Virus record (IMG/VR): IMGVR_UViG_2740892489_000001
From: a virus
Lineage: Duplodnaviria; Heunggongvirae; Uroviricota; Caudoviricetes
Strand: one strand, 5' to 3'
DNA length: 49,169 nt
Shown here one piece after another: positions 8,506-43,957 of the stretch (position 1 is the stretch's first letter; each line of letters starts with the position of its first letter). Both the position numbers and the translations under genes were made by a program. Below the pieces are notes generated by a model that worked only from the letters and a program-made list of their open reading frames with translations, was not told where the DNA came from and did no database searches.

Positions 8506-8924
8506 AAATCAAGCATGAGCACATCGAATCAGTGTTGTTAGCCCTGGCAGCCGAAAAAGGGCAGGCGTGGGTCGCTAACGCAATTACTGAAGAATATCTG
8601 CACCAGGGGGGCGGCGAATTGCCCCTGGTACCAGGCAAGGACTGGAACAATCAGCAGAATATCTATCATCGTTGGTTGAAAGGTGAAACGAATGCGCAAA
8701 GGGAAAAAATTCAGAAACTGATCCCTGCGGTTCTGGCAATTCTTCCTCGCGAGCTGCGTCACCGACTCTGCATCTTCGATACCTTGGAACGCCGTGCATT
8801 ACTGGCGGCACAGGATGCACTGAGTACGGCAATTGATGCGCATGATGATGCAGTCCAGGCCGTTTACCGTAAAGCACATTTCAGCGGCGGCGGTTCTCCT
8901 AGCGATTCTGTCGTAGTGCATTGA
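8502..8924 (+). CDS. YdaT-like (CII-position) regulatory protein
   Basis: 140-aa ORF overlapping the upstream stop (ATGA); position as ydaT in Rac. Confidence 0.5.
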   Translation: MKIKHEHIESVLLALAAEKGQAWVANAITEEYLHQGGGELPLVPGKDWNNQQNIYHRWLKGETNAQREKIQKLIPAVLAILPRELRHRLCIFDTLERRALLAAQDALSTAIDAHDDAVQAVYRKAHFSGGGSPSDSVVVH

Positions 8925-9001
8925 TTGAAATTAATCGTACCGAACTGTTTTGTTCGGTATCAGTTAAATGTAACGCTGCGAGCGTTACAAGGTGAAAACA
9001 A

Positions 9002-9790
9002 ATGGCTTCAAACTGGATAAAGCTCGAAGTTATTACGCCGGATAAGCCGGAAATATTCAGGCTTGCTGAGATTCTGAATATTGATCCAGATGCCGCATTA
9101 GGGAAAGTCATTCGCTTCTGGGCATGGGCGGATCAACAAATGATAGACGGTAACGCAGAGTGTAACGCTCGAGGCGTTACAAAAAGTGCAATAGACCGTA
9201 TCACTTTTATGGCTGGTTTTGCTGATGCGTTAATTCAGGTTGGATGGCTGGTCGAAAGTGATGGAGTGCTTTCACTACCAAACTTTGAGCGTCATAACGG
9301 AAAAAGCTCGAAAAAACGGGCGGTTACAAACGAGAGAGTTACAAAAATACGCGAACTGAAGCGAAAAGGTAACGCTGCCAGCGTTACACAAACGGATCAA
9401 AAAGCGTTACCAGAGGAAGAGGAAGAGGAAGATATAAATACTGATCTCCCCCTAAATCCCCCTCGGCAAAAACGAGCGTCTAAACAATTCGAGCCGGAGG
9501 CCATTGCTCTGCCCGACTGGTTGCCAGAAACACTCTGGAATGAGTGGGTCCAGTTCAGGCAGGCATTGCGAAAACCGATTCGAACGGAGCAGGGCGCTAA
9601 CGGGGCGATACGGGAACTGGAAAAATTCCGCCAGCAGGGTTTTACCCCTGAGCAGGTGATTCGACACAGCATCGCCAATGAATACCAGGGCTTGTTCGCG
9701 CCGAAAAGTGTTCGGCCTGAGACGTTGCTCCGACAGGTTAACACTGTCTCGTTTCCGGACAGTGCGATCCCGCCAGGCTTCAGGGGGTAA
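9002..9790 (+). CDS. Replication initiation protein, O-like
   Basis: 262 aa with acidic linker EEEEEED; iteron-like repeats inside the coding region; followed by DnaC-like gene. Confidence 0.7.
   Translation: MASNWIKLEVITPDKPEIFRLAEILNIDPDAALGKVIRFWAWADQQMIDGNAECNARGVTKSAIDRITFMAGFADALIQVGWLVESDGVLSLPNFERHNGKSSKKRAVTNERVTKIRELKRKGNAASVTQTDQKALPEEEEEEDINTDLPLNPPRQKRASKQFEPEAIALPDWLPETLWNEWVQFRQALRKPIRTEQGANGAIRELEKFRQQGFTPEQVIRHSIANEYQGLFAPKSVRPETLLRQVNTVSFPDSAIPPGFRG
9149..9410. repeat. Iteron-like GTAACGC / GCGTTAC repeats (candidate ori)
   Basis: GTAACGC at 9150 and 9162, GCGTTAC at 9174 and 9404, palindrome GTAACGCTGCCAGCGTTAC at 9369-9387; similar palindrome at 8970-8988. Confidence 0.6.
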
Positions 9791-9796
9791 CTGACC

Positions 9797-10543
9797 ATGA
9801 AAAATATTGCGACAGGCGGCGTTCTGGAACGTATCCGCAGACTGGCCCCGCCACATGTAACCGCGCCATTCAGGACGGTGGCGGAGTGGCGCGAGTGGCA
9901 ACTTGCAGAAGGCCAGAAACGTTGCGAGGAGATCAATCGCCAGAATCGTCAGTTGCGGGTGGAAAAAATTCTGAATCGCTCCGGCATCCAGCCGTTGCAC
10001 CGCAAATGCTCGTTTTCGAATTACCAGGTGCAGAACGACGGCCAGCGATACGCGTTGAGCCAGGCGAAATCCATCGCCGATGAACTGATGGTCGGGTGTA
10101 CAAATTTTGCGTTTAGCGGAAAACCTGGTACCGGAAAAAACCATCTGGCGGCGGCTATCGGGAATCGCCTGCTGAAAAACGGTCAGACAGTGATTGTGGT
10201 TACCGTGGCTGATGTTATGAGTGCTCTACACGCCAGCTATGACGACGGGCAATCAGGCGAAAAATTTTTGCGGGAACTGTGCGAAGTGGATCTGCTGGTT
10301 CTTGATGAAATTGGCATTCAGCGCGAGACAAAAAACGAGCAGGTGGTACTGCACCAGATTGTTGATCGCCGGACAGCGTCGATCCGCAGCGTGGGGATGC
10401 TGACAAACCTGAACTATGAGGCCATGAAAACATTGCTCGGCGAGAGGATTATGGATCGGATGACCATGAACGGCGGGCGATGGGTGAATTTTAACTGGGA
10501 GAGCTGGCGCCCGAATGTTGGTCAGCCAGGAATTGAGAAGTAA
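9797..10543 (+). CDS. DnaC-like helicase loader ATPase
   Basis: Walker A GKPGTGKNHLAAAIG and Walker B LLVLDEIG. Confidence 0.85.
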   Translation: MKNIATGGVLERIRRLAPPHVTAPFRTVAEWREWQLAEGQKRCEEINRQNRQLRVEKILNRSGIQPLHRKCSFSNYQVQNDGQRYALSQAKSIADELMVGCTNFAFSGKPGTGKNHLAAAIGNRLLKNGQTVIVVTVADVMSALHASYDDGQSGEKFLRELCEVDLLVLDEIGIQRETKNEQVVLHQIVDRRTASIRSVGMLTNLNYEAMKTLLGERIMDRMTMNGGRWVNFNWESWRPNVGQPGIEK

Positions 10544-10565
10544 TTTTTACCGGGAGGAAATTTTA

Positions 10566-11291
10566 ATGGAGACCGTTTTTGACGCACTGAAAGCAATGGG
10601 AAAAGCCTCTTCCCAGGAAGTGGCAGCACGTCTGGGAATGACCCGGGATGAGGCGATTAACGAGCTGTGGAAACTGAAGCGTCGTGGGGAAGCTGATAAC
10701 AAGGGCCCGATGTGGTGGTTGACTCAAACCGACGAAAACGCATCTGTAGCACAGGCTTCTAAAGTGACAGCGCAAATGCTGATCGAGGCGATTGAACAGC
10801 ATGGCCCTAAAGCGGCTGATGAACTTGCACTGATATTCAGAATTACTTCCCGCAGGGTGAACTCATCGCTGGCTATGGCCATCAGCAAAGGTCGTCTGAT
10901 TCGCGTAAATCAGAACGGTAAATTTCGTTACTGCCTGCCGGACGGTAATTTACCAGCAGAGCCGAAAGTTGTATCGGTAGTGAAAACACCTGGTAAAGGC
11001 TTTCCTCAGCCAGCCGGTGTTGCGTTACCAGTACAGGAAGCGGCAACACAGGAAGAAATTAAAACAGATACTGTGGGGGACATTGTGCAGTCACTACCAT
11101 CGTTCACTGAAACGCGAGCCAATGACCTGATTATACCATCGCTGCAAATGGCAAACCGCGAACTGCGCCGGGCGAAAAGTTATGTCCAGAAGTGGGAGCG
11201 AGTCTGCGCCGCGCTGCGTGAGCTGAACAAGCACCAGGATATTGTCCGTCAGATTGTCGATTCCTCCAGTCGTATTGTGTCGGAAAAGTGA
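10566..11291 (+). CDS. Hypothetical protein with two winged-helix-like segments
   Basis: GGAGG Shine-Dalgarno 8 nt before ATG 10566; 241 aa. Confidence 0.5.
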   Translation: METVFDALKAMGKASSQEVAARLGMTRDEAINELWKLKRRGEADNKGPMWWLTQTDENASVAQASKVTAQMLIEAIEQHGPKAADELALIFRITSRRVNSSLAMAISKGRLIRVNQNGKFRYCLPDGNLPAEPKVVSVVKTPGKGFPQPAGVALPVQEAATQEEIKTDTVGDIVQSLPSFTETRANDLIIPSLQMANRELRRAKSYVQKWERVCAALRELNKHQDIVRQIVDSSSRIVSEK

Positions 11292-11307
11292 TTCTAGGGG
11301 AGGGCTT

Positions 11308-11731
11308 ATGGCAAAAGTATTAACACAGGAAGAGCGAGAAAAAAATTAAAGGGCAGATTGTTGATCTCGTACGCCAGAGTGAGCGAGAGACGTTACGACA
11401 ACTGGAAGCTAAAACAGGGGCAACCAGATATCTGATAAGTATTCTCGCCAAAGAGCTGGTTTCGAGTGGTTACGTATACAACTCTGGCTACGGGTTATTC
11501 CCGTCTGAGCAGGCACGTAAAGACTGGCAAAACGCCAGCAAAAAACTCTCGAGTGCAAAGTCGAAGGAACCGGTTATGGTTGATCCTGACCTTATCTGCT
11601 CGTTATCTGACGGAGAAATACGTCGTTACGACAGGCGTCATAATATAATTTGTAGTGAGTGCCGTAAAAGAGAAGTTATGCAGCGTGTACTGGCGTTTTA
11701 TCGGGGAAACTTTCAAGAGGTGCTGTTGTGA
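11308..11731 (+). CDS. Hypothetical protein; frame broken at A7 run 11339-11345
   Basis: ATG with GGGGAGGG Shine-Dalgarno; 13 codons then stop; removing one A gives a continuous 140-aa frame ending with CSLSDGE...CSEC. Confidence 0.4.
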
Positions 11732-11891
11732 GCCAAATTAATAATCGGAACTTGGTGAAGTGAAAGAGAAAGCATAACCCAAATCTGAATAATTAAATTC
11801 AGCACTGTGAATAAAATAGAGTCCTTAACCGGAGGAATTCCTGCACTCTCAAATCATCAGGAGGCCGCCCGAAAAGGCGGTGGAGATAATA

Positions 11892-12410
11892 ATGGAAATA
11901 ACTAAAGAACGATTATTGGAAATAGCAAATCTTAGTGATGGGGCATTAAGTGATGGGAGAATTATTTCTCCTGATGCTTATGAATCAGTTACAAGTATAG
12001 AAATAATAACGATGGCTAGGATGCTTCTTGCGCGATTCAAAAAAGAATATAAAAAACAGGTAGATAGCAATGCTAATATATATGATATTTTGGACGGTTG
12101 GGGAGCCTGGGCTGTAGCTGAAAATAGTTCTATTGATTGGCAGGAAATAGCTGATAAATATAAAAATGTTGTTCCTCATGGTAAAAAATCACGTCGTCAG
12201 TGCAGCAATGATGAAGGGGGTATAATTGATACCTGCATGTTGAGGCTTAAACAATATAAGATAGATGACTATGAGTTAATTATCGCTCATTTTGTTATGG
12301 GAGTTTCATTGCGTTGTTTAGCTAAGATAAACGAATGTTCAGATGGTAAAATAAGGAAAAAAATGCAAATGGCAATGGGATTTATTGCAGGTTGTATCTA
12401 TTACCGTTGA
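11892..12410 (+). CDS. Q-antiterminator-like protein (QuuD/Q-933W type) with N-terminal extension; AT-rich
   Basis: DGWGAWA...KSRRQC...IIDTCMLRLK...FVMGVSLRCL...CSDGKIRKKMQ resembles the Q family signature as recalled; GGAG 6 nt before ATG 11892. Confidence 0.55.
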   Translation: MEITKERLLEIANLSDGALSDGRIISPDAYESVTSIEIITMARMLLARFKKEYKKQVDSNANIYDILDGWGAWAVAENSSIDWQEIADKYKNVVPHGKKSRRQCSNDEGGIIDTCMLRLKQYKIDDYELIIAHFVMGVSLRCLAKINECSDGKIRKKMQMAMGFIAGCIYYR

Positions 12411-12416
12411 TTTTTT

Positions 12417-12437
12417 AAGGCGAGTTTCTCTCGCCTT
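12417..12437. other. Perfect 8-bp stem-loop between convergent genes (possible terminator)
   Basis: AAGGCGAG-TTTCT-CTCGCCTT, T6 on the 5' side only; not a canonical hairpin-plus-U-tract in either direction. Confidence 0.4.
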
Positions 12438-12440
12438 AAA

Positions 12441-13924
12441 TTAACTACAGTAACTATTGATTAAGTGAGAACTGAGCCAAGAGGTAATTGCATTCGTAGC
12501 ATGTTCATCAAGCATTGAGAATCCTAATATGATCATTATAAATGAAATCAGCAAAGTCAGAATCACAACGAATGTGGCTATAATCTGATAAGCTTTGTAT
12601 GCTTCTCTTAATGGTGTGACTGCAAGATTCTCATAGTCAGTATCATCAAGAAAACCATATAGTTTATCTCTCCAGACTAGCCTAGTATTATCAAGTATCT
12701 TAAAGTAATTTTTATTTATGAAGAGAGTTGTAACCTGAGATATAAAAATATATATAGATAACGCGAAGAACATATATGGGAATATGTTATTGGTTATATT
12801 AATCTTTGATGCGTCTAGCGCATATTTTATTGCAAATAGACTTATAACCAGAGCCAGATCTTTCCAAAGAGCGGATGTGATGTCTTTAGACTGACTTATT
12901 ATTTTTTGCGTGTCTTCAGCTAAGGTTTTCCTTAGATCGGACAGAGATTTAATAGTCTCTCTGCTGCTAGCGCGAATGTGGGCCTTATATAGTAATTTTG
13001 CTGACTCAAAGGCCATAGGGAGTTTTTTTTGGTAAACCCTCACAGAAGGATACATACTCTGGCCATTCTCGTGCTAACTCACTTGTGAAGAAAGTATGTT
13101 TGAGTTCAATCTCATTGCCCTCAATAAAGATCCAGTTTATTACAGTTTGTAAAACTGAATAGTCGGAAAGCAGAATGTCTGGATCTCCATAAATTAATTT
13201 TTTTGGTGGCTTTCCAGTTAAACAAATTGATTTCTTTTCATCTGCTAATAATTCATTAACGAGAGTGCGACAAAGCATATTGCAGGAAACTTGTAACCAT
13301 TTTTTGAAAAAGTTGTCCTCTGCCTCAGGCATTTTATAAAGTACCCAAGGAGCTATATCAGATGCAGGCATGAACTCACTAGAATAGAATTTAACGTAGC
13401 TCTGTAAATTGATTGAAGTTCGTACGGTTTCATTAGATTCAATTTTTTTCTGGAGCATGGTTCCATGGCTCAACAGAATATCCTAAAGTTTCAAATCCAT
13501 GTTTCAAACCGAGAATATTCACTTTATTGGTTATTGATACTAAATCATCATTGTGTAGAAAAACATTCCACCCTTCGAGCGTAAAAATATACCTGTTATT
13601 TTCGAATGCAATGCATTTTAGCGTAATGTTAAGTTTATCACCTTCACTGCATGACGATGGTTTTACTTCATCATTACAGTCATCTTTAACAGTAATTTCA
13701 ATCCAATTTGGTACGTTTTCGTAAACGTACTGCCAAAGAATGAGTGCATCTTTGTCCATTTTGGCAGAAATTAGAACGCGCGCAGAATCATTTTTTATTG
13801 ATTCTGATGCCAAAAATTCAGGGTCTTTCCTTGACGCCTGTATAGACTCATCGATTTTTTGAAGTATCGATGTCATCAGTAATAATCCTCGCAGTAGTAA
13901 CAATAATTTGTTTTCGCCCATCAT
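12441..13924 (-). CDS. Hypothetical protein with multi-pass membrane C-terminus; three track ORFs joined across homopolymer indels
   Basis: ORFs 13439..13924, 13006..13473 and 12441..13055 become one frame if T7 13443-13449 and T8 13023-13030 are each one base shorter; hydrophobic helices in last ~200 aa. Confidence 0.5.
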
Positions 13925-14907
13925 CTAAGTTTCTTATTTCTGGACGGTCATCTTCATTATAACTAATTACTACACTTTCTGCAGTTTCAATTTTTCGTCT
14001 TGGTGGTTTATGAATGCCATCTGCTTTTATAGTAAAGGATTCGCCTTCAATACCAGCATTTTTTGTTTGAGTTTTGAATGTGTTGAGAATTGGTGATTTT
14101 TCATCTAACGGCCCAAAAATGCTGGTCAATAACGGAGAAGCATCTTCAGGATTATATTCGAAATCAGCTCTGCTTAAAACTTCATATATTTTATTTACGC
14201 CGCTTTTTTGAATTGACTCTGGCAATAATTCTTTATGCCTTTTGAAGGTTATTTTCAGCGCATCAATAAGCTTATTGCAAAGTTCAATTTCAGAGTTGAC
14301 TCTTTTAACATTTAAGAAGCCTTTAAAATATCCTGAAATATTGGTTCTTTTACTCCTGTCTTTTACAATAACTTTCCCGCCTTTCCCACTTGGATCAAGT
14401 TGAATTAACGCTATTTTTTTGCATTGCCTCAGCTTTTTTTACGAAAGTTTCATGAAATCTTTCTAAAGTAGGCATTTGTTCTTCAGATAACTTTTCGTCA
14501 AGAACATAACGAACCACATCTTCATTATCGTATTTTATAATTGCATAGAATTTTTCCTTATCTGAAACCAATTCAAATAAGAAAAAGCATCCCATACTCG
14601 TGTTACCGCTAGAATGGTGTGACTGAAAATCACTGGCCAGTAGCTTCGATTGTTCTGTAAAACAATTAGCTTCAGCATCTGCTTTATCTCTAATGATACG
14701 CAGGATTCTTTCGGTATTTGAATTCTCCAGAAAAGTGAAAAGATTTCCTTTCAGTGAAGATTTGATACGTTCAAGAAAAAAATCCACATGCTGAACTGGT
14801 TTTATTTCTTTGAGAAGTGTCGGTGCTTCAAGATTCTTACCTACAACGTGAAAGATCATTTTATTAATGACTAAATTTTGTACGTCTTGTTCAGAAAGGA
14901 AACTCAT
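13848..14907 (-). CDS. NdpA/YejK-like (nucleoid-associated protein family) candidate; two track ORFs joined
   Basis: ORFs 14395..14907 and 13848..14225 fuse if T7 14414-14420 or 14434-14440 is one base shorter; motifs MIFHVV, GCFFLFELV...YAIIKYD, IQLDPSGKGGKVIVKDRSK recall the YejK family; GGAG before start. Confidence 0.45.
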
Positions 14908-14948
14908 CCTGACTCCATAATCAAGCAGATTAGAACTATGACTAGTCT

Positions 14949-14977
14949 AGTATATGCATCTTTTGGTGCGTACGCAA
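14949..14977 (-). promoter_or_regulatory. Candidate sigma70 promoter for the minus-strand island genes
   Basis: On minus strand TTGCGT-17 nt-TATACT, about 50 nt upstream of start 14907. Confidence 0.35.
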
Positions 14978-14999
14978 AAGTTCTTAAACTCAAAATGTT

Positions 15000-15236
15000 A
15001 TCGCGGATAGATCTTTGTAGAGTCAGTGATTGGCGCAGGTAGGTGGTAACAGCAGACAAATAGCTGCGGATACTTGAGGCTATCTGCCTCGGGCATGAAC
15101 ATCAAAGGCAGATAGAGAAAAGCCCCAGTTAACATTACGCATCCGGCAAGACGCTTAACATTAATCTGAGGCCAATTTCATGCTTTGCACATGTAGGTTA
15201 GCCTCTTACGTGCCGAAAGGCAAGGAGAAGCAGGCT
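15000..15236. promoter_or_regulatory. hok leader / putative sok antisense region
   Basis: Structured GC-rich leader typical of hok mRNAs upstream of the hok ATG. Confidence 0.4.
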
Positions 15237-15392
15237 ATGAAGCAGCAAAAGGCGATGTTAGTCGCCCTGATCGTCATCTGTTTAACCGTTATAGTGACGG
15301 TACTGGTAACGAGGAAAGACCTCTGCGAGGTACGAATCCGAACCGACCAGACGGAGGTCGCTGTCTTCACAGCTTACGAACTTGGGGAGTAA
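15237..15392 (+). CDS. hok: Hok/Gef-family type I toxin
   Basis: MKQQKAMLVALIVICLTVIVTVLVTRKDLCEVRIRTDQTEVAVFTAYELGE; in-frame upstream extension from 15180 (mok-like). Confidence 0.85.
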   Translation: MKQQKAMLVALIVICLTVIVTVLVTRKDLCEVRIRTDQTEVAVFTAYELGE

Positions 15393-15400
15393 GAGGACCG

Positions 15401-15418
15401 GCGGGGAGAAATCCCCGC
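15401..15418 (+). terminator. Stem-loop at hok 3' end
   Basis: GCGGGGA-GAAA-TCCCCGC immediately after hok stop. Confidence 0.45.
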
Positions 15419-15855
15419 AACCTCTGATGTATTATGCATCCTCAACGCAGCCACAGTTAACCTGATTGGCGGGTTTATTTCATCTGTAAATATATTTATA
15501 AAAATAATGCCCACGCACAGCATAAAACAAAAAGTATTACAGATAAAAAAGGAACGTAATGTGCAGATTTGTTGTTTTCCATATTTACTCACCTTAATAT
15601 GATTAACCCTGATAGGGTTGTTATTTCAGCGGTTTTCAAATGAGATATTATGGTGATCTGACAAATTTGCATAACATTAAAATTTAATTTGTTTAACCGC
15701 TTTTAATAATAAGCGTTGTTTGTATCCCAGCAATCTGTTGTTTGGTTTTTATTCCATTAAGGTGGGGGCTTTACACTGGAGCCAGTTTATTTATACTTCA
15801 TACGTCAGCCTGAACAACTGGCATCTGCTGCGCTGCGCCATCGAGAGATTGAGAA

Positions 15856-16455
15856 ATGGCGCATATACAACTGGTCAAACAAACCTCTTCCGGATTACTT
15901 CTCCCGGCGACGCCGGAGAGTTGTGATTTTCTGCATCAAATCAAAATAGGCGAGTGGATACACGCAGACTTTAAGCGTGTGCGTAACTACGCATTCCACA
16001 AGCGTTTTTTCAAACTCCTGCAACTGGGATTCGATTACTGGACTCCGGTCGGTGGGGCGATCACGCCTCGCGAACGAAAACTGCTGTCTGGTTTCGTTGA
16101 TTACCTGTGCGAATCAGTTGGTCGGGAACACACGCCAGCCCTGAGTGATGCCGCAGAGCAATATCTGAATACAGTTGCGACACGCAGAACCCGGGATACG
16201 GCATTGTTAAAGTCGTTTGAGGCTTTTCGCGAGTGGGTAACCATTCAGGCTGGATTTTACACCGAACATTTTTATCCGGACGGTAGCCATGGGCGTCGGG
16301 CGAAATCCATCGCTTTTGCGAATATGGACGAAACCGAGTTTCAGCAGGTTTATAAATCTGTTCTGAATGTGCTGTGGAACTGGATTCTGTTCCGTAAATT
16401 TTCCTCTCCGGAACAAGTCGAAAATGTGGCCGCGCAGCTGCTGGAGTTTGCGTAA
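15856..16455 (+). CDS. Nin-region phage protein (DUF1367-like by recollection)
   Basis: 199-aa ORF in the position of ydfU-type genes upstream of the late regulator. Confidence 0.45.
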   Translation: MAHIQLVKQTSSGLLLPATPESCDFLHQIKIGEWIHADFKRVRNYAFHKRFFKLLQLGFDYWTPVGGAITPRERKLLSGFVDYLCESVGREHTPALSDAAEQYLNTVATRRTRDTALLKSFEAFREWVTIQAGFYTEHFYPDGSHGRRAKSIAFANMDETEFQQVYKSVLNVLWNWILFRKFSSPEQVENVAAQLLEFA

Positions 16456-16745
16456 TGGTGGATTTACGTAAAGCGGCGCGGGGGCAGATGTGCACCGTCA
16501 GAATTCCTGGCTACTGCAATCACGATCCGGAAACGTCTGTGCTGGCGCATTACCGACTGGCGGGAACGTGCGGAACAGCGACAAAACCACACAATATGCA
16601 GGCGGCGATTGCCTGTAGCTCATGCCACGATCTAATCGACGGGCGGGTAAAAACCATCGATTACACCAAAGAAGAATTACGCCTGATGCATGCAGAAGGT
16701 GTTCTTCGCACACAAGAAATCTGGAGAAAGGAGGGATATTTATGA
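16455..16745 (+). CDS. YbcO-like Cys-rich protein (DUF1364 by recollection)
   Basis: CTVRIPGYCNHDPETSVLAHYRLAG...CSSCHD pattern, 96 aa. Confidence 0.5.
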   Translation: MVDLRKAARGQMCTVRIPGYCNHDPETSVLAHYRLAGTCGTATKPHNMQAAIACSSCHDLIDGRVKTIDYTKEELRLMHAEGVLRTQEIWRKEGYL

Positions 16746-16924
16746 TTTACCCAACGAATACAGGAAAAAGCGGAGAACACCTTCGTCTCACCACGCTGGA
16801 AAGTGTCTGGATTCAGGGAAAACTACGTATGTGGGGGCGCTGGTCGTATATTGGCGGCGGTAAGACGGGGAATATGTTCAACCAGTTGTTGGCCTCTAAA
16901 AAGCTGACAAAAAACGGCAATTAA
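16742..16924 (+). CDS. Hypothetical 60-aa protein
   Basis: GGAGGG Shine-Dalgarno before ATG 16742; overlaps upstream stop. Confidence 0.4.
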   Translation: MIYPTNTGKSGEHLRLTTLESVWIQGKLRMWGRWSYIGGGKTGNMFNQLLASKKLTKNGN

Positions 16925-16940
16925 CGAGGCGCTCCGGAGG

Positions 16941-17286
16941 ATGAAAAAAAGCAGGTCTGAACAAGTCTGAACTTGAGGCTTTTTTGCGGGATATGATTAA
17001 CGGTAAGCAAAAGAGCTGGCTGGCGCATTGTACTGATGCAGAGGCGTTATGTATTGATCGGGTCATAAGTGAGGTGCTGGCAGAGCATCCAGGATTGATT
17101 AGCGTCCTTCGGCAACGGTATGAGGGGCGGGGGATGACCAAACGCAAAATGGCTGAATTGCTAAATGATGCACACCCAGAGTGGTGTTTTAGCACATGCG
17201 AAAAGCGAATTGCTAATTGGTTGGCCGTTGCTGAGTATGCGCTATACATTCCCATGCGAGAATCATTCGCTCAAAAAACGGCTTGA
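16941..17286 (+). CDS. Hypothetical protein at the Q position upstream of the late region; frame broken at A7 run 16944-16950
   Basis: ATG 16941 with GGAGG Shine-Dalgarno gives 9 codons then stop; one fewer A yields a continuous 115-aa frame MKKAGLNKSELEAFLRDMINGK... Confidence 0.4.
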
Positions 17287-17532
17287 TTTTTTACGCATAA
17301 ACTGCTTCAATTTTGCTACGCTTCGCAAAGCTGTATCGCGAGGCGAATCAAGCGCAATTAAACTTTAATAGAACCCGCCATCGAGCGGGTTTTGTTGTTT
17401 CTGTGGTGTGATATCAGAAACGATATTTAATCATCGCCTTCAAAATAAATTTATTTATATGTTGTTGTATATATTTTAAGTGAAAGTGAATTATTCACAT
17501 AAAATAAAAACATATAAATAAATTTACATAAC

Positions 17533-17576
17533 TTGACGCAAACTGTTGTTGCGATTGGAATATTAAATCGTATCAT
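17533..17576 (+). promoter_or_regulatory. Candidate promoter upstream of tRNA genes
   Basis: TTGACG at 17533 after a very AT-rich upstream stretch (17440-17530); -10 element ambiguous. Confidence 0.3.
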
Positions 17577-17639
17577 CGAAAACGGTTCTGAGGGGGAACT
17601 CTTCTTTGAACGGTGATATCGCTCCCCTGAAGAACCAAT

Positions 17640-17715
<76 letters not shown>

Positions 17716-17718
17716 TAT

Positions 17719-17793
<75 letters not shown>

Positions 17794-18159
17794 GCATTTG
17801 AAACAAGCCTTATTGTATTACGGCACTGGCGTATTTTTTTTATTACGTGGGAGCAGGTTGTTTTGAAAAAGCATTCTGTTCTCTGGCTATGATTTGAGGC
17901 CGGGTGTAGCCTCAGTGCTGATTTTTTACGGCAGCAGAATGGTGCATTATCGGTGGAGATTTTGTATTTCCTGGCAGGGTCGGTGATGCATCATTCTGGT
18001 GTTGTAAATCGCACCACAGAGGCGCTCCTCAGTGCGAGGGTGGTTTAAAGAGTCGGTTTAGCGGGAAACCACAGTATCCATACAGCACGGAATACTTCGG
18101 GAGGCACCCGACGCCTCGGTTTAATAACAATTAAAAAATTCATCCCTTGCATTGACCAA

Positions 18160-18184
18160 CCGCCATATCTGGCGGTTTTTTTTT
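18160..18184 (+). terminator. Rho-independent terminator
   Basis: CCGCCA-TATC-TGGCGG followed by T9. Confidence 0.7.
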
Positions 18185-18574
18185 ATTCCTTTCTCAGGAC
18201 AAAAAAAAGACACGAGCATCCAGGAATACTCGTGGGACAACGTCCTTTAGATAGCAATTTGCGAGAGGGTGAAAAGTAGCGCGGTCGTCGGATTAAGACC
18301 GCGGGACAAAGTCCATGAAGAATAATAAGTATTGGCCCCCTTCTGGGGACATGTTCATACTACTAAGCTTCAGAAGTGGTTTAAATCATCAAATTAACCT
18401 TAATTTTCGATAAGTCTTATTTCATTTCTTTGCGCCACATCTGGCGCGCATCAAATAACGCCACGCAAAGGGCATCTGCGGATGCCGGTGCTTTTGACGG
18501 GGTGTTTTTTACGGGCCGCTGGTGGCCATTTTTTGTTTCCATTACACAGCGCCCGCATCTGCGAGGTGGGGGTT

Positions 18575-21481: not shown

Positions 21482-22270
21482 ATGAGCGAGAAATTAAAGA
21501 TAGTCTATCGCCCATTACAAGAATTGTCACCGTATGCGCACAACGCCAGGACGCACAGTACTGAGCAGGTGGCACAACTGGTAGAAAGTATTAAGCAATT
21601 CGGCTGGACTAATCCGGTGCTGATTGACGAAAAGGGCGAAATTATTGCGGGTCACGGTCGTGTTATGGCGGCTGAAATGCTCAAAATGGATTCTGTTCCG
21701 GTCATTGTTCTGTCTGGCCTGACGGATGAGCAGAAAAAGGCGTACCGCCTGGCAGATAATCGCCTACCGATGAATGCTGGCTGGGATGAAGATCTATTGC
21801 GGATGGAGCTGTCGGACCTAATCAATGCTGATTTTGATGTCTCCCTGACAGGCTTCGGCCCGACAGAAATTGATGAACTGTTGACGGATGTTTTGCCCGG
21901 TACAGGAAATAAGGAGGAGCCGTATACGACGAAAATTGATACGCCTGTTTATGAGCCGTCGGGCGGTAAACCGGATATCAGTGAACTGTACGACGATACG
22001 AAAACTCAGGAGCTGATCAGCCGGATACGTTCGGCGTCCCTTGATCCTGATATTGAGAAATTCCTCCTGTGTGCGGCAGAACGTCACACGGTGTTTAATT
22101 TCAGCAGAATTGCGGACTATTACGCTCATGCCCCCGCTGAAATTCAGTGCCTTTTCGAGGAGTCGGCGCTGGTGATCATTGATTATCAGCAGGCTATTGA
22201 AAATGGATTTGTCCGAATGACGCAGCGCATGGTGGCGATCATGCATAGCGGGGAGGAGGAATATGCGTGA
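21482..22270 (+). CDS. ParB-like nuclease domain protein (YnaK-like)
   Basis: N-terminal IVYRPLQELSPYAHNARTHS...GHGRVMAA resembles a ParB N-terminal domain. Confidence 0.6.
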   Translation: MSEKLKIVYRPLQELSPYAHNARTHSTEQVAQLVESIKQFGWTNPVLIDEKGEIIAGHGRVMAAEMLKMDSVPVIVLSGLTDEQKKAYRLADNRLPMNAGWDEDLLRMELSDLINADFDVSLTGFGPTEIDELLTDVLPGTGNKEEPYTTKIDTPVYEPSGGKPDISELYDDTKTQELISRIRSASLDPDIEKFLLCAAERHTVFNFSRIADYYAHAPAEIQCLFEESALVIIDYQQAIENGFVRMTQRMVAIMHSGEEEYA

Positions 22271-23196
22271 TGATTTTTGCGCCTTTATTCTGACTCACGG
22301 GCGACCGGACAAAGTTCTGACTTACCGGACGTTGCGTCGTGCTGGCTATACCGGGAAAATTTTTATCGTTGTTGATGATGAAGATAAGACACGGCATCAG
22401 TACATGGCTGAATTTGGTGAACAGGTGCTGGTATTTTCCAAAGCCGATATTGCCAGTCGTTTTGACGAAGCCGATAATTTTGGTGACCGCCGCTCAATTT
22501 TTTTACGCCCGTAATGCCTGTTTCGACCTGGCAAAACTGGTCGGGTGTAAATACTTCATTCAGCTCGATGATGATTATCACGAGTTCCAGTTTCGGGTGG
22601 ATCGCAACTATGACCAGGCCTATTTCCCGATAAGGAAACTGGATGCGATCCTTTCTGAAATGCTGGCGTATTACGAATCAATACCCGCGCTTTCCATCGC
22701 TATGTCGCAGGGCGGGGATTTTCTTGGTGACAATGGCGGCCATGCTTCGTGGGTGAAACGCAAGGCAATGAACAGCTTTATCTGTTCGGTTGATCGACCG
22801 TTCTCATTCATGGGGCGCATTAACGAGGATGTGAATACGTACACGAATCTCGGTCGCTGTGGTGAATTGTTTATGACGATCGGTGCTGTCCAGTTAGGGC
22901 AGAAACAGACGCAGAAAAACAGCGGCGGAATGACCGAGCTGTATCTGGATTCCGGAACCTACGTTAAAAGTTTTTACTCCGTCATGTATGCGCCGTCGTG
23001 CGTAAAAATCTCACTGATGGGTGCCAGCCATAAACGCATTCACCATCAGGTCACCTGGAACAACGCTGCAGTAAAAATCCTTCACGAAAAATACAGGAAG
23101 AAGACACCCTGCATATCAATGGGGGTGACAAATGATTCCGTATTCGAAAGTCGAGTCTCTGGCAGCGTGCCGGATGACTGCACAACAAATCGCTGA
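22263..23196 (+). CDS. Hypothetical protein, possibly glycosyltransferase-like; frame broken at T7 run 22498-22504
   Basis: ORF 22263..22514 (AFILTHGRPD...) continues into ORF 22339..23196 frame (FYARNACFD..., IQLDDDY) if one T is removed. Confidence 0.4.
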
Positions 23197-23383
23197 CGTT
23201 CTGGATGTTGATCTGAACCGACTGAAAGAAAATCGGGAAGCAATGACAGATTTTTATGCGGCCATCCGTAAGGGCAGAGCGAAAGGTGAAGCCGAGTTAC
23301 GAGCGGCATTGTTTAAGCTTGCCAGAAAAGGGGATGCCTTTGCTCTGCGCGAACTACTCAGGGTGGATAAAAATCAGGACTAA
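23132..23383 (+). CDS. Small hypothetical protein upstream of terminase
   Basis: 83-aa ORF; overlaps end of upstream gene; function unknown. Confidence 0.3.
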   Translation: MIPYSKVESLAACRMTAQQIADVLDVDLNRLKENREAMTDFYAAIRKGRAKGEAELRAALFKLARKGDAFALRELLRVDKNQD

Positions 23384-23386
23384 CTG

Positions 23387-24486
23387 ATGAGCAGACCGGA
23401 CTGGGGGGCGTTGCAGCAGGAGTATATTGCTGAATACACCCGCTCCGGTATATCTCCGGTGGCATGGTGTGAAGCAAGGGGACTGAACTACGCAACAGCC
23501 CGTCGTTACATCAAAAAAAACTCCGAAAAATGCGCAGAAAGAAAATGCGCAAAACTGCGCAAAAAAAGTGCGCGAAAAAAAAACTGCGCAGACTGCGCAA
23601 AGGCAGAACGGAAAATCTCAGAAAAAAAAAGGCTGTATCCGATGCACTCCTGATTGAGGGGGACACGGAAGAAATTTCGTTCTGCCCCGATGAATTCGGT
23701 ATTTCTGACCAGCAGGCAAAATTCGCCATGTTGGTTGCTCAGGGGAAAAAGCCGACAGAGGCATACCGACTGGCTGGTTATGAGGGGCAAGGTGCGACAG
23801 CTAACAGCAACGCCAGCCGTATGCTTAGAAATGCCAGGGTTTATCGTGCTATCAGCTACTTCCGCAATCAGTACCAGAAACGCTATACCGCAGACCTGGA
23901 TTTACTGGTGAGCCAGTTGATGGCCATTGTCCAGGCCGACCCCAATCAGTTGGCACAATTTCGCCGTGTTAACTGCCGTTATTGCTGGGGCGAGAATCAT
24001 CTCTACCAGTGGCGTGATATTGCAGAATTCGATAAGGCTGCGGCACAGGCCTCCAGAGATGGTAAACCCGAGCCGGAATATGGAGGCCTCGGCTTTGTTG
24101 ATAACGCCATACCCAATCCGGATTGCCCGAAGTGCTGCGGTGAGGGAACGGGACAGCTTTATATGGCTGATACCACACTGCTTGATGGGGATGCGCGGCA
24201 ATTATATGCAGGGTCAAAGCTCGGAAAATACGGTGTTGAGATCCTGCTGGAGGATAAGGCTGCCGCCCGGCGTGAATTGTTGCGTTTGCTTTCTGCTGGC
24301 GGGGCATTATGTGCAGATAAACGGCTACAGGAACTGGAAATTGAACGGCGCAGAATAGAAAACCAGAAGCTGCGCAAAGAGATCGAAACGGTGGAGGATA
24401 ATGAACATCCCCAGCCTGTGGCGATCAATATTAATGTGGTTGATGCCAGATTAAGGAGTGATGAAGATGATCTCTCCGACGCTTAA
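23387..24486 (+). CDS. Terminase small subunit; frame ambiguous through A-run repeat region 23513-23630
   Basis: N-terminal ORF 23387..23653 and ORF 23530..24486 (AKFAMLVAQGKKPTEAYRLAGY...ANSNASRMLRNARV) separated only by A8/A7/A9 runs. Confidence 0.6.
23513..23630. repeat. Array of six TGCGC(A/G) hexamers interleaved with A6-A9 tracts
   Basis: TGCGCA at 23531, 23546, 23556, 23585, 23594 and TGCGCG at 23569; A runs at 23513, 23561, 23575, 23622. Confidence 0.5.
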
Positions 24487-25768
24487 TGTGCCTCAGGCGC
24501 GATTTCTTTCAATGCCCCATAAATTTAAAGCCTATATTGCTGGTTTTGGCTCGGGCAAAACATGGGTTGGGTGTGGCGGCATATGCAAGGGGATTTGGGA
24601 GCATCCAGGTATAAATCAGGGATATTTTGCGCCAACGTATCCCCAAATTCGCGATATTTTTTACCCTACAGTGGAAGAAGTTGCTGCTGACTGGGGATTG
24701 AACGTAAAAATTAATGAGGGAAATAAAGAGGTTCACTTTTATTACGGACGCCAGTATCGGGGAACCACTATCTGCAGATCGATGGAGAAGCCACAAACGA
24801 TCGTCGGTTTCAAAATTGGTAATGCGCTGGTGGATGAACTGGATATTTTGCCGAAGGAAAAAGCCAGAACGGCGTGGCGCAAGATAATTGCGCGTATGCG
24901 TTATAAGATTGATGGACTTCGCAACGGTATTGACGTTACAACCACGCCGGAAGGATTCAAATTTGTCTACGAGCAGTTTGTTAAAGCCGTGCGTGAAAAA
25001 ACAGAGCTGGCCTCACTGTATGGTCTGGTGCAGGCATCTACTTTCGATAATGAAAAGAACCTGCCAGCAGATTACATTCCTTCACTTCTTGAATCATACC
25101 CTCCAGGGTTGATTAAAGCCTATCTTCTAGGACGGTTTACTAACCTGACAAGTGGTACTGTTTACCATCAGTTTGACCGGAAACTGAATAATTGCGAAGA
25201 AGTGGAGCAGCCAGGGGAGCCGATTTATATTGGGATGGATTTTAACGTTGGAAAGATGGCGGGAATCGTCCATGTGCTGCGTTTGGGGCTTCCATGTGCG
25301 GTAACTGAAATCATCAATGCCTACGATACGCCGGATATGATCCGCCTCATTAAAGAACGCTTCTGGCCGTATGACGGGCATGATTACCGGAAAGTGAGGG
25401 AGATTTATATTTATCCAGATGCTTCCGGAGATTCCAGAAAATCAAGTAACGCAAGTACGACGGATATAGCCCAGCTTAAGCAGGCAGGTTTTAACGTTGT
25501 GGTGAACAGCTCGAACCCGCCAGTAAAAGATCGCGTTAACTCAATGAATGCAATGTTCTGCAATGCCAATGGTGAGCGTCGCTATAAAGTTAATGTGAAG
25601 CGTTGTCCGGTATATGCCGAATCTCTGGAGCAACAGGTCTGGGATGATAAGGGGGAGCCTGATAAAAAATCTGGCAATGATCACCCGAATGATGCCGGAG
25701 GTTATTTCATCGTTAAGCAATTCCCTATTGTCAAACCGACCGGAAGAGTCACATCACTTCGGATTTAA
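24458..25768 (+). CDS. Terminase large subunit
   Basis: Walker A-like AGFGSGKTW near N-terminus; 436 aa. Confidence 0.85.
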   Translation: MMKMISPTLNVPQARFLSMPHKFKAYIAGFGSGKTWVGCGGICKGIWEHPGINQGYFAPTYPQIRDIFYPTVEEVAADWGLNVKINEGNKEVHFYYGRQYRGTTICRSMEKPQTIVGFKIGNALVDELDILPKEKARTAWRKIIARMRYKIDGLRNGIDVTTTPEGFKFVYEQFVKAVREKTELASLYGLVQASTFDNEKNLPADYIPSLLESYPPGLIKAYLLGRFTNLTSGTVYHQFDRKLNNCEEVEQPGEPIYIGMDFNVGKMAGIVHVLRLGLPCAVTEIINAYDTPDMIRLIKERFWPYDGHDYRKVREIYIYPDASGDSRKSSNASTTDIAQLKQAGFNVVVNSSNPPVKDRVNSMNAMFCNANGERRYKVNVKRCPVYAESLEQQVWDDKGEPDKKSGNDHPNDAGGYFIVKQFPIVKPTGRVTSLRI

Positions 25769-42700: not shown

Positions 42701-43227
42701 CTAAAAATGCGGATATCAGTGGCAGTGTGAATGCGAACTCCGGGACGCTCAACAACGTTACGATAAATGAGAACTGTCAGATTAAAGGGAAACTGTCAGC
42801 CAACCAGATTGAAGGCGATATTGTCAAAACAGTGGGTAAGGCTTTCCCGCGGGACTCCCGGGCACCGGAGCGGTGGCCATCAGGAACCATTACCGTCAGG
42901 ATTTATGACGATCAGCCGTTTGACCGGCAGATTGTTATTCCGGCGGTGGCATTCAGCGGTGCTAAACATGAGAGAGAGCATACTGATATTTACTCCTCAT
43001 GCCGCCTGATAGTGAAGAAAAATGGTGCTGAAATTTATAACCGTACCGCGCTGGATAATACGCTGATTTACAGTGGTGTTATTGATATGCCAGCTGGTCA
43101 CGGCCACATGACGCTGGAGTTTTCGGTGTCAGCATGGCTGGTAAATGACTGGTATCCCACAGCAAGTATCAGCGATTTGCTGGTTGTGGTGATGAAGAAA
43201 GCCACCGCAGGCATCAGTATCAGCTGA
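39748..43227 (+). CDS. Host specificity / central tail fibre protein J
   Basis: 1159 aa, immediately after I. Confidence 0.9.
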
Positions 43228-43246
43228 ATTTTATAACCCATATACG

Positions 43247-43270
43247 GGCGCCAGAAATGGCGCCTTTTTT
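43247..43270 (+). terminator. Rho-independent terminator after J
   Basis: GGCGCC-AGAAAT-GGCGCC followed by T6. Confidence 0.6.
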
Positions 43271-43294
43271 ATTGCAGAAAAGCGAGAGGTAATT

Positions 43295-43893
43295 ATGCGT
43301 AAAGTTTGTGCAGCCATTTTGTCCGCAGCCATCTGTCTGGCCGTATCCGGTGCGCCTGCATGGGCGTCTGAGCAGCAGGCCACACTGAGCGCAGGGTATC
43401 TTCATGCCCGTACGAACGCTCCCGGCAGCGATAATCTGAACGGGATTAACGTGAAATACCGTTATGAGTTTACGGACACGCTGGGGCTGATTACGTCATT
43501 CAGTTATGCCAACGCTGAAGATGAGCAAAAACGCATTACAGCGATACCCGCTGGCATGAGGATTCCGTGCGTAATCGCTGGTTCAGCGTGATGGCGGGGC
43601 CGTCTGTGCGCGTGAATGAATGGTTCAGCGCGTATGCGATGGCGGGTATGGCTTACAGCCGTGTGTCGACTTTCTCCGGGGATTATATCCGCGTAACTGA
43701 CAACAAGGGGAAAACGCACGATGTGCTGACCGGAAGTGATGACGGTCGCCACAGCAACACGTCTCTGGCGTGGGGAGCTGGCGTGCAGTTTAACCTGACC
43801 GAATCGGTGGCCATTGATATTGCTTATGAAGGCTCCGGCAGTGGTGACTGGCGCACTGACGGTTTCATCGTGGGTGTCGGTTATAAATTCTGA
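43295..43893 (+). CDS. lom: Lom-family outer membrane protein; frame broken at A5 run 43527-43531
   Basis: Signal peptide MRKVCAAILSAAICLAVSGAPAWA; C-terminal ORF 43567..43893 (...SVMAGPSVRVNEWF...GVGYKF) joins with one extra A. Confidence 0.85.
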
Positions 43894-43920
43894 TTAGCCA
43901 GGTAACACAGTGTTATGACA

Positions 43921-43946
43921 GCCCGCCGGTTCAGGCGGGCTTTTTT
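43921..43946 (+). terminator. Rho-independent terminator after lom
   Basis: GCCCGCC-GGTTCAG-GCGGGC followed by T6. Confidence 0.65.
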
Positions 43947-43957
43947 GTGGGGTGAAT

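Follow-up and report, generated by a model that had tools for sequence, protein, structure and literature searches.

A candidate P1-like pac recognition array of hexamer repeats within the small terminase gene of a Rac-type prophage and its relatives

The hexamer array and described pac sites

The pac site of phage P22 lies midway within gene 3 and is a single asymmetric site of approx. 22 bp, not an array of short palindromes. In phage P1, pac consists of seven TGATCA/G hexamers arranged as two clusters within pacA, which flank an integration host factor (IHF) site and the cut sites, and Dam control is exerted through the GATC cores of the hexamers (PMC10028697). In SPP1/SF6 the pac site overlaps the 5' end of terS and contains short repeats which are thought to wrap as bent DNA round the ring of helix-turn-helix (HTH) domains; the SF6 HTH is a weak, essentially non-specific binder of pac DNA and the box repeats do not explain recognition (PMC4737164). 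Here we describe an array of six TGCGC(A/G) hexamers within the small terminase gene (terS, 23387–24486, + strand) of the virus record IMGVR_UViG_2740892489_000001, the whole 49,169-nucleotide stretch of which was analysed and is referred to as the window, and we compare this array with known systems and with its relatives as a putative pac recognition element.

The array, a predicted TerS-HTH binding site recorded without a strand, occupies positions 23531–23599, with TGCGCA starting at 23531, 23546, 23556, 23585 and 23594 and TGCGCG at 23569 (start-to-start spacing of 15, 10, 13, 16 and 9 bp). It is located at approx. codons 49–71 of 364 (terS nt 145–213) and the first hexamer begins 12 nt past the 44-codon HTH segment. 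The initial annotation had reported six copies at 9–16 bp spacing in the 5' part of the small terminase gene, and both the positions and the location were confirmed, with clustering far beyond chance. TGCGC(A/G) was not over-represented across the entire window (64 matches counting the two strands, 74 expected from shuffles), and of the 34 sites on the + strand in 49 kb the densest 70-nt interval held six while the next best anywhere held two. The Poisson probability of at least six sites per 70 nt was 1.7e-11, or approx. 8e-7 after multiplying by the number of interval positions. In the corrected reading frame (see below) five of the hexamers read xxT GCG CAx and encode [N/T/S]-Ala-Gln, or -Ala-Arg at the TGCGCG copy, and the sixth reads ATG CGC A (Met-Arg) in another codon phase.

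When the P1 layout was read from AF234172, both systems were seen to place several copies of a 6-bp palindrome within the gene of the recognition subunit, just after an N-terminal HTH segment (pacA nt 194–233 and 324–352 for the P1 hexamers, against the terS positions given above), and in both most copies stand in one codon phase with a minority in another. The N-termini of the two proteins gave reciprocal profile matches, TerS to the N-terminus of phrog_1711 (the P1 PacA family, E 6e-5) and PacA to phrog_370 (E 1.9e-4), and they share a ..TARRY.. helix (..NTARRYL.. in PacA and ..ATARRYI.. in TerS). Relatives of the window with two hexamer clusters approx. 200 bp apart recall the two-cluster layout of P1, whereas the Rac lineage has a single cluster. 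Unlike the P1 repeat, the Rac hexamer TGCGCA/G contains no GATC and would therefore not be subject to Dam-methylation control. The Rac-type TerS core is of the Terminase_2 type and unrelated to PacA, and BLASTP found no similarity between the large terminase (TerL) and P1 PacB.

As in P22, the recognition sequence would be embedded in the part of the genome that encodes the small terminase of a temperate headful phage of enterobacteria, although the TerS families are unrelated. By its core, Rac-type TerS groups with SPP1/SF6 G1P, which belongs to the same Pfam family, Terminase_2. Unlike the SF6 protein, Rac-type TerS has an additional HTH domain at its N-terminus, matched with a hexamer that is sharply defined and strongly conserved, and this combination points to true sequence-specific reading. 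The Rac array also lies entirely within the open reading frame (ORF), whereas the SPP1/SF6 pac overlaps the terS 5' end. A literature search combining TGCGCA with terminase returned no relevant paper and a TGCGCA/TGCGAAT system was not found described in the searchable literature; a search of supplementary material for phage RothD found no PhageTerm result.

Constraint on the DNA and covariation with the helix-turn-helix domain

Related loci were collected with the HTH domain as query, 80 from one-genome-per-species contigs and 80 from IMG/VR, of which 127 were non-redundant; the species set covered Escherichia, Shigella, Klebsiella, Enterobacter, Citrobacter, Serratia, Providencia, Proteus, Morganella, Xenorhabdus, Pantoea, Erwinia, Pectobacterium, Vibrio and Aeromonas. 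The domain was conserved in the 160 loci collected, and a check for the repeats in related terS genes found the same array after the same N-terminal HTH in dozens of species. Across the 127 non-redundant loci the density of TGCGCA was 26.7/kb in the 160 nt after the HTH compared with 0.64/kb in flanks of approx. 3 kb, a difference of approx. 42-fold. In the converse search, which started from three closely spaced TGCGCA, 52 of 80 IMG/VR loci had this HTH within 450 nt; one further locus was a distant TerS with another HTH subtype and the rest were unrelated tandem repeats or chance matches in high-GC DNA. In the distant locus (L180, 1982–2584) a 200-aa TerS (HTH ..GVAESTLRKRIASGGW, then five TGCGCA in two codon phases) lies upstream of a 563-aa TerL, and as this array accompanies a different HTH the motif extends beyond the HTH subfamily modelled. 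In Escherichia phage Rac-SA53 (L003, 1410–2438) terS is annotated as a 'fusion of two genes by deletion' and is without the HTH domain, and its array is partly degenerate, with two TGCGCA followed by TTCGCA, TGCGCT and TGCCCA, a pattern as expected of a decaying packaging module.

The 327 TGCGCA sites in 68 species-level loci of the main type occupied all three codon phases. Phase xxT GCG CAx accounted for 239 sites and 16 tripeptides (TAQ, SAQ, AAQ, NAQ, TAH, PAQ and others), phase xTG CGC Axx for 67 sites and 15 tripeptides (LRT, VRT, VRN, MRN, LRK and others) and phase TGC GCA for 21 sites with one peptide (CA). When the linker peptides were resampled synonymously 0.53 TGCGCA per locus were expected and 5.08 observed (approx. 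10-fold), and only 6 of 70 loci were ever equalled by any of 200 resamplings; for the class of loci with lysine at HTH residue 39 (K39, see below) the corresponding figures for TGCGAA were 0.40 and 3.2. The A-Q/A-H dipeptides of the linker were encoded with T+GCG in 226 of 250 cases, and in an alignment of 31 Klebsiella/Enterobacter-type loci all six hexamer positions were conserved while nearby codons wobbled at the third position. Because the sites occur in three codon phases, exceed the synonymous expectation and keep their third codon positions, these comparisons indicate that the array is constrained as DNA and not as peptide.

The corrected TerS consists of the HTH, a linker of approx. 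50 aa and a Terminase_2-like core with a Cys-rich insert. The predicted three-helix HTH domain corresponds to codons 1–44 (23387–23518, + strand; MSRPDWGALQQEYIAEYTRSGISPVAWCEARGLNYATARRYIKK), with R39 in the predicted third (recognition) helix. A single-sequence AlphaFold2 model of residues 1–44 gave a predicted local distance difference test (pLDDT) score of 85.8 with helices at 6–20, 24–31 and 35–42; a single sequence was used because the 44-aa domain, when used to search for homologues, yielded no more than 15 products, which were short, mostly truncated and of no use as an alignment. The nearest folds in PDB were DeoR, Aca1, the IstA transposase HTH and sigma region 4, and a Pfam search of the HTH gave only a sub-threshold match (HTH_29, E 0.054). 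In the core, Pfam Terminase_2 (PF03592) matched the ORF at 23530–24486 with 34.4 bits against a cut-off of 26.1, and the terS product matched phrog_51 'terminase small subunit' at E 2.7e-74. The linker is rich in Lys, Ala and Gln (in relatives KKTPKNAQKEMRKTAQKSARKKTAQTAQ..) and is encoded by the array.

Residue 39 was the sole position among residues 1–43 that separated the loci into arginine (R39) and K39 classes, and it lies in predicted helix 3. All 110 R39 loci carried TGCGCA arrays (mean 4.9; TGCGAA 0.01) and all 16 K39 loci carried TGCGAA(T) arrays (mean 3.4; TGCGCA 0.06), so that the motif matched residue 39 in 126 of 126 R39/K39 loci; 25 of the 55 motif copies of the K39 class form the 12-mer palindrome TGCGAATTCGCA. 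In 115 of 115 loci the motif went with the HTH type rather than with the TerS core, and at least three core classes each occurred with both types.

Many relatives also contained a second cluster of one to three TGCGCA approx. 200 bp downstream, inside the conserved TerS core. It was located at +330 to +400 nt from the terS start (L011–L015 and many of L021–L094; core peptide ..VAQAIAQQQKAS..), where ..NVAQAIAQQQK.. is encoded with GTT GCG CAG GCC ATT GCG CAG, and 33 of 60 R39-type loci with other cores contained it. In the K39 loci L092 and L095, which have the same kind of core, the second cluster was instead two copies of TGCGAAT encoding ..VANEIANQQK.., and there the protein has changed (Q to N) in a way that preserves the DNA word. 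No conserved non-coding-like block was seen between the two clusters in the DNA alignment of the 31 Klebsiella-type loci. A concerted change of every copy, the distal ones included, is hard to explain without a trans-acting reader, and on this comparative evidence the TerS HTH is the obvious candidate.

A different N-terminal HTH on a Rac-type TerS core was observed in Actinobacillus phage vB_Apl-pPE4 (L004, 1330–1400) and in L298, where the repeat set at the same place is GTTTCCAC twice, followed by two inverted copies of GTGGAAA. This one distinct sequence of the pPE4 type suggests a general design of an HTH with its cognate array; a scan of viral contigs for the pPE4 HTH subtype gave only three loci, too few for a test of generality.

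The spacing of the hexamers showed strong peaks at 21 and 42 bp when all pairs were considered, which places the sites on the same helical face. Their conserved context across the family is A-rich, approx. A-C-TGCGCA-A-A-A, and part of this A-richness simply follows from the Lys codons in the tether. The corrected Rac sequence has A-tracts and hexamers in alternation, the A-tract centres being 10.5–14 bp apart, which fits some intrinsic curvature, although the lags between A-tracts across the family had no clean 10.5-bp periodicity and a phased series was not conserved. The phased A-tracts of the initial annotation thus hold roughly and for the Rac lineage only, the family-wide phasing being that of the hexamers at 21 bp; likewise its A6–A9 tracts were present in some spacers, whereas others are shorter (A3–A5) and five of the runs are one A too long. 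It is an attractive idea that the A-rich spacers could have two roles, as DNA that can be bent and as coding sequence for a basic linker that hugs DNA.

The recognition reading, its rivals and the broken frame

We consider, with a probability of roughly 0.7, that the array is a multivalent TerS-binding (pac recognition) element within the terS coding sequence which is built like P1 pac. This reading is supported because the array is conserved, is constrained at the DNA level, switches with a residue of the recognition helix and has a parallel in P1 pac; the proposal of the initial annotation that a pac site lies within terS is thereby supported by comparative evidence, and its function as pac is something we infer. 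In the mechanism that we propose the palindromic TGCGCA copies would be read by the N-terminal HTH of TerS itself. Known Terminase_2-type TerS proteins are ring oligomers, and TerS would form such a ring, with one HTH per subunit held on a flexible Lys/Ala/Gln-rich tether of approx. 50 residues. Several HTHs engaging five to six hexamers within approx. 70 bp would give cooperative, sequence-specific nucleation of the terminase on the concatemer, and the array-bound TerS would represent the recognition half of the pac site. A cut by TerL close to this site would follow and open a headful packaging series.

Several observations weigh against this reading. The similarity between PacA and TerS is weak and confined to the N-terminal HTH (BLASTP E 0.034 over 12 residues, together with the profile matches at E 6e-5 and 1.9e-4), and the IHF consensus WATCAANNNNTTR, with up to one mismatch allowed, was not matched within or close to terS in L005, an error-free relative, which is unlike P1. 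The HTH assignment itself is based on a single-sequence model and on Foldseek matches in PDB which, although the top ones were all HTH DNA-binding domains with a template modelling (TM) score of approx. 0.6, had E > 0.8 and were non-significant. The Terminase_2-type DNA-binding region of the TerS core could be the real pac reader. The second cluster is absent from the Rac lineage, the window and Rac-type relatives having only one, and degenerate copies (TGCGCG, TGCACA, TGTGCA) are tolerated among E. coli lineages. Few independent events may underlie the R39/K39 covariation, and with less than 100 bp between the HTH and the first cluster co-inheritance alone gives part of the correlation. Finally, we infer the binding of HTH to hexamer, the start of packaging from that binding and the position of the cut, and for this phage the same applies to the cut site and to headful packaging.

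An unlikely alternative is that the TerS HTH binds the hexamers for regulation, such as autorepression, a transcriptional roadblock or cis-preferential loading, and not for packaging. The constraint on the DNA and the covariation would fit any function that involves HTH binding, and the SPP1/SF6 literature suggests that binding of the small terminase at pac could enable viral gene regulation (PMC4737164). However, no promoter-like site was found in 23000–24000, approx. 500 bp either side of the array, and the array lies inside an ORF. The protein is moreover a terminase subunit encoded directly upstream of terL, and its closest characterised analogue, the P1 hexamers, is pac.

A much less probable explanation is that the A-runs are a programmed frameshift, a site of transcriptional slippage or a phase-variable switch which yields an HTH-only protein besides full-length TerS. 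As sequenced, terS is split into two ORFs in different frames (23387–23653 and 23530–24486) which overlap, other public assemblies contain truncated products of 45–77 aa or a 'frameshifted' terS at the same runs, and A8 runs are slippage-prone. The break falls in the A-rich, Lys-rich linker-coding segment that holds the array (23513–23630, + strand), whose A-runs are, in order, A8 (23513–23520), A5, A3, A4 (23542–23545), A4, A7 (23561–23567), A9 (23575–23583), A3, A4 and A9 (23622–23630). The five runs with coordinates are each one A longer than in every relative examined, where they are A7, A3, A6, A8 and A8, respectively. The stretch 23480–23660 is identical to that of the closest relative, E. 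coli LD67-1, except for these five extra A's, all inside A-runs, and the net +5 nt is the exact frame offset between the two ORFs; once they are removed a single terS ORF of 364 aa results. Every relative examined has a single terS coding sequence of 1095 nt and 364 aa, and the intact ORF is present in ten phage records and in the E. coli genomes LD67-1, WP8-S18-CRE-02 and Z247. A frameshift would need five separate +1 events at this site.

Elsewhere in the window the same one-directional +1 pattern was found when runs were compared with LD67-1. The window was longer at 12 of 51 A/T runs of length 6, 3 of 6 of length 7 and 4 of 8 of length 8 (about half of those of 7–8), while no A/T run was shortened and G/C runs were unaffected, which is a technical signature. 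Single-base insertions relative to LD67-1 were recorded at 775, 5347, 5971, 6439, 7765, 7811, 20030, 22498, 25921, 33084 (+4 A), 37074, 37077, 37574, 47714, 47749 and 48024; they are almost all in A/T homopolymers of at least 6 and deletions never occur. The same insertions split a glycosyltransferase gene (22263–22514/22339–23196) and the portal gene (25771–25962/25856–27178). All four runs of at least 6 in the 110-bp array stretch were affected, which is above the window-average expectation, and the A-rich context of this stretch may be especially error-prone. Because relatives have a single ORF and the +1 A/T bias is window-wide, one-directional and length-dependent, the break in the frame most likely arose in sequencing, as an artefact of A/T homopolymer overcalling. 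A frameshift as biology was rejected, the two-frame arrangement not being conserved. The ambiguity of frame which the initial annotation attributed to the A-runs is real in the window in that the frame is broken there, but it is most likely not biological, and unless resequencing supports it neither a pseudogene nor a programmed frameshift should be annotated at the break.

There is also very little to recommend the view that the repeat is a low-complexity linker at the peptide level ([ST]AQK repeats) which arose by duplication and has no role as DNA. In the Rac lineage 5 of 6 copies do encode [NTS]-A-Q in one phase within a Lys-rich, probably disordered linker. The three codon phases, more than 30 peptide contexts and 10-fold excess over synonymous expectation all stand against it, as do the conserved third codon positions within hexamers and a second cluster which alters the core from Q to N to follow the motif. 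A peptide repeat alone was rejected by the codon-phase and synonymous-resampling tests.

An equally slight chance attaches to the array acting as a nucleic-acid structure through hairpins in mRNA or single-stranded DNA, which might for instance pause translation or serve as antisense intrinsic terminators. Three adjacent hairpins are formed when the corrected array is folded (z = -2.56), and on the minus strand two segments (23600–23584 and 23561–23546) in which hexamer pairs are followed by T-runs score as intrinsic-terminator-like hairpins; the latter are probably a by-product of palindromes and A-runs. Any set of palindromes would fold in this manner, however, and it is the sequence that is conserved, with no compensatory variation. 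Spacings of 7 and 9 bp, which are frequent, leave too little room for loops, the number of copies is in many cases odd, and the TGCGAAT of the K39 class is not self-complementary, with only 25 of 55 copies in the 12-mer palindrome. No Rfam family matched in 23000–24600. An inverted repeat just 3' of the array (arms at 23602–23618 and 23670–23686, 17 nt, 82% complementary, 51-nt spacer) is retained in E. coli and Salmonella Rac-type relatives and absent from Scandinavium and Serratia homologues, and it may be unrelated to the array. The idea that the hexamers are recombination or module-junction sequences which shuffle the HTH onto TerS cores, to which the HTH-plus-array unit on at least three unrelated cores and the other HTH types on a Rac-type core (pPE4) lend some colour, is just as improbable, as it leaves unexplained the second in-core cluster, the concerted change of CA to AA with residue 39 and the 21-bp phasing.

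Genomic setting and implications

The window is a full-length E. coli Rac-type lambdoid prophage which gave an alignment of approx. 98.5% with the intR-to-pinR region of strain LD67-1, where recET, kilR, sieB and trkG are present. The segments 8912–15059, 17345–18560 and 45438–46673 did not align to the LD67-1 Rac prophage, and 15059–17345 and 43144–45438 were only approx. 94% identical to it, which indicates mosaic replacement in the early and the tail-fibre regions. The terS 5' region was present in 882 of 5,426 complete E. coli genomes and, at approx. 95% identity, in ten records of induced or isolated phages (e.g. Salmonella phage SPF_0923 and Escherichia phage vB_EcoS-473R12), which are opened at an arbitrary point or are partial.

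The gene order ending at the array is trkG, a ParB-like gene, a TAGT-type glycosyltransferase and terS, with terL directly after. The terL gene (24458–25768, + strand) overlaps the end of terS and its product matched Pfam Terminase_6N (3e-31) and Terminase_6C (8e-11); it is 40–52% identical to TerL of Kagunavirus, Jerseyvirus and Dhillonvirus, with 43–44% to Jerseyvirus TerL including Kenya-K57 and Kenya-K6. Jerseyviruses are reported to be headful packagers with pac initiation (PMC10783031) and, because of this resemblance of TerL, headful packaging is likely in the Rac-type phage. Sequence searches for relatives of solved structure with the HTH, full-length TerS and TerL gave nothing significant, the best being the Pam5 small terminase (E 0.19).

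Directly upstream of terS an 83-aa ORF (23132–23383, + strand), annotated as a 69-aa hypothetical protein in relatives, matched positions 145–218 of 319 of phrog_309 'terminase small subunit' (E 8e-23) and could be what is left of a displaced terS, or else a small protein that binds DNA or is accessory to packaging. Between trkG and terS (21482–23196, + strand) a ParB/Srx-like protein (ynaK type, phrog_620) is encoded first and after it a TET-associated/GREB1-like glycosyltransferase (Pfam PF20691; phrog_842 'beta-glucosyl-HMC-alpha-glucosyltransferase'), and the two may form a DNA-modification pair beside the packaging genes.

We rate the array as a putative P1-like hexamer-repeat pac site inside terS, one which is widespread and carries a sharp prediction of specificity. 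It is possible, although we propose this only tentatively, that the HTH together with the array which encodes its tether is a portable packaging-specificity cassette carried on at least three unrelated cores in Enterobacterales, Vibrio and Aeromonas, with specificity set largely by residue 39 (TGCGCA for R39, TGCGAAT for K39). If true, this would provide a simple, re-programmable code for the DNA choice of a headful phage and a sequence-specific answer to how Terminase_2-type TerS proteins find pac, the SF6 HTH being non-specific. How small terminases recognize pac is still unclear for most phages, and the present family, with a 6-bp word in 3–9 copies, an HTH domain that is small and separable and a specificity that switches naturally between R39/TGCGCA and K39/TGCGAAT, gives a testable alternative. 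The element is common in E. coli genomes and occurs in prophages from many genera of clinical relevance. Should it be pac, it would predict which DNA is transduced by these prophages, for example from pseudo-pac clusters, and like P1 pac it may serve phagemid and transduction tools as a compact packaging signal of approx. 100 bp.

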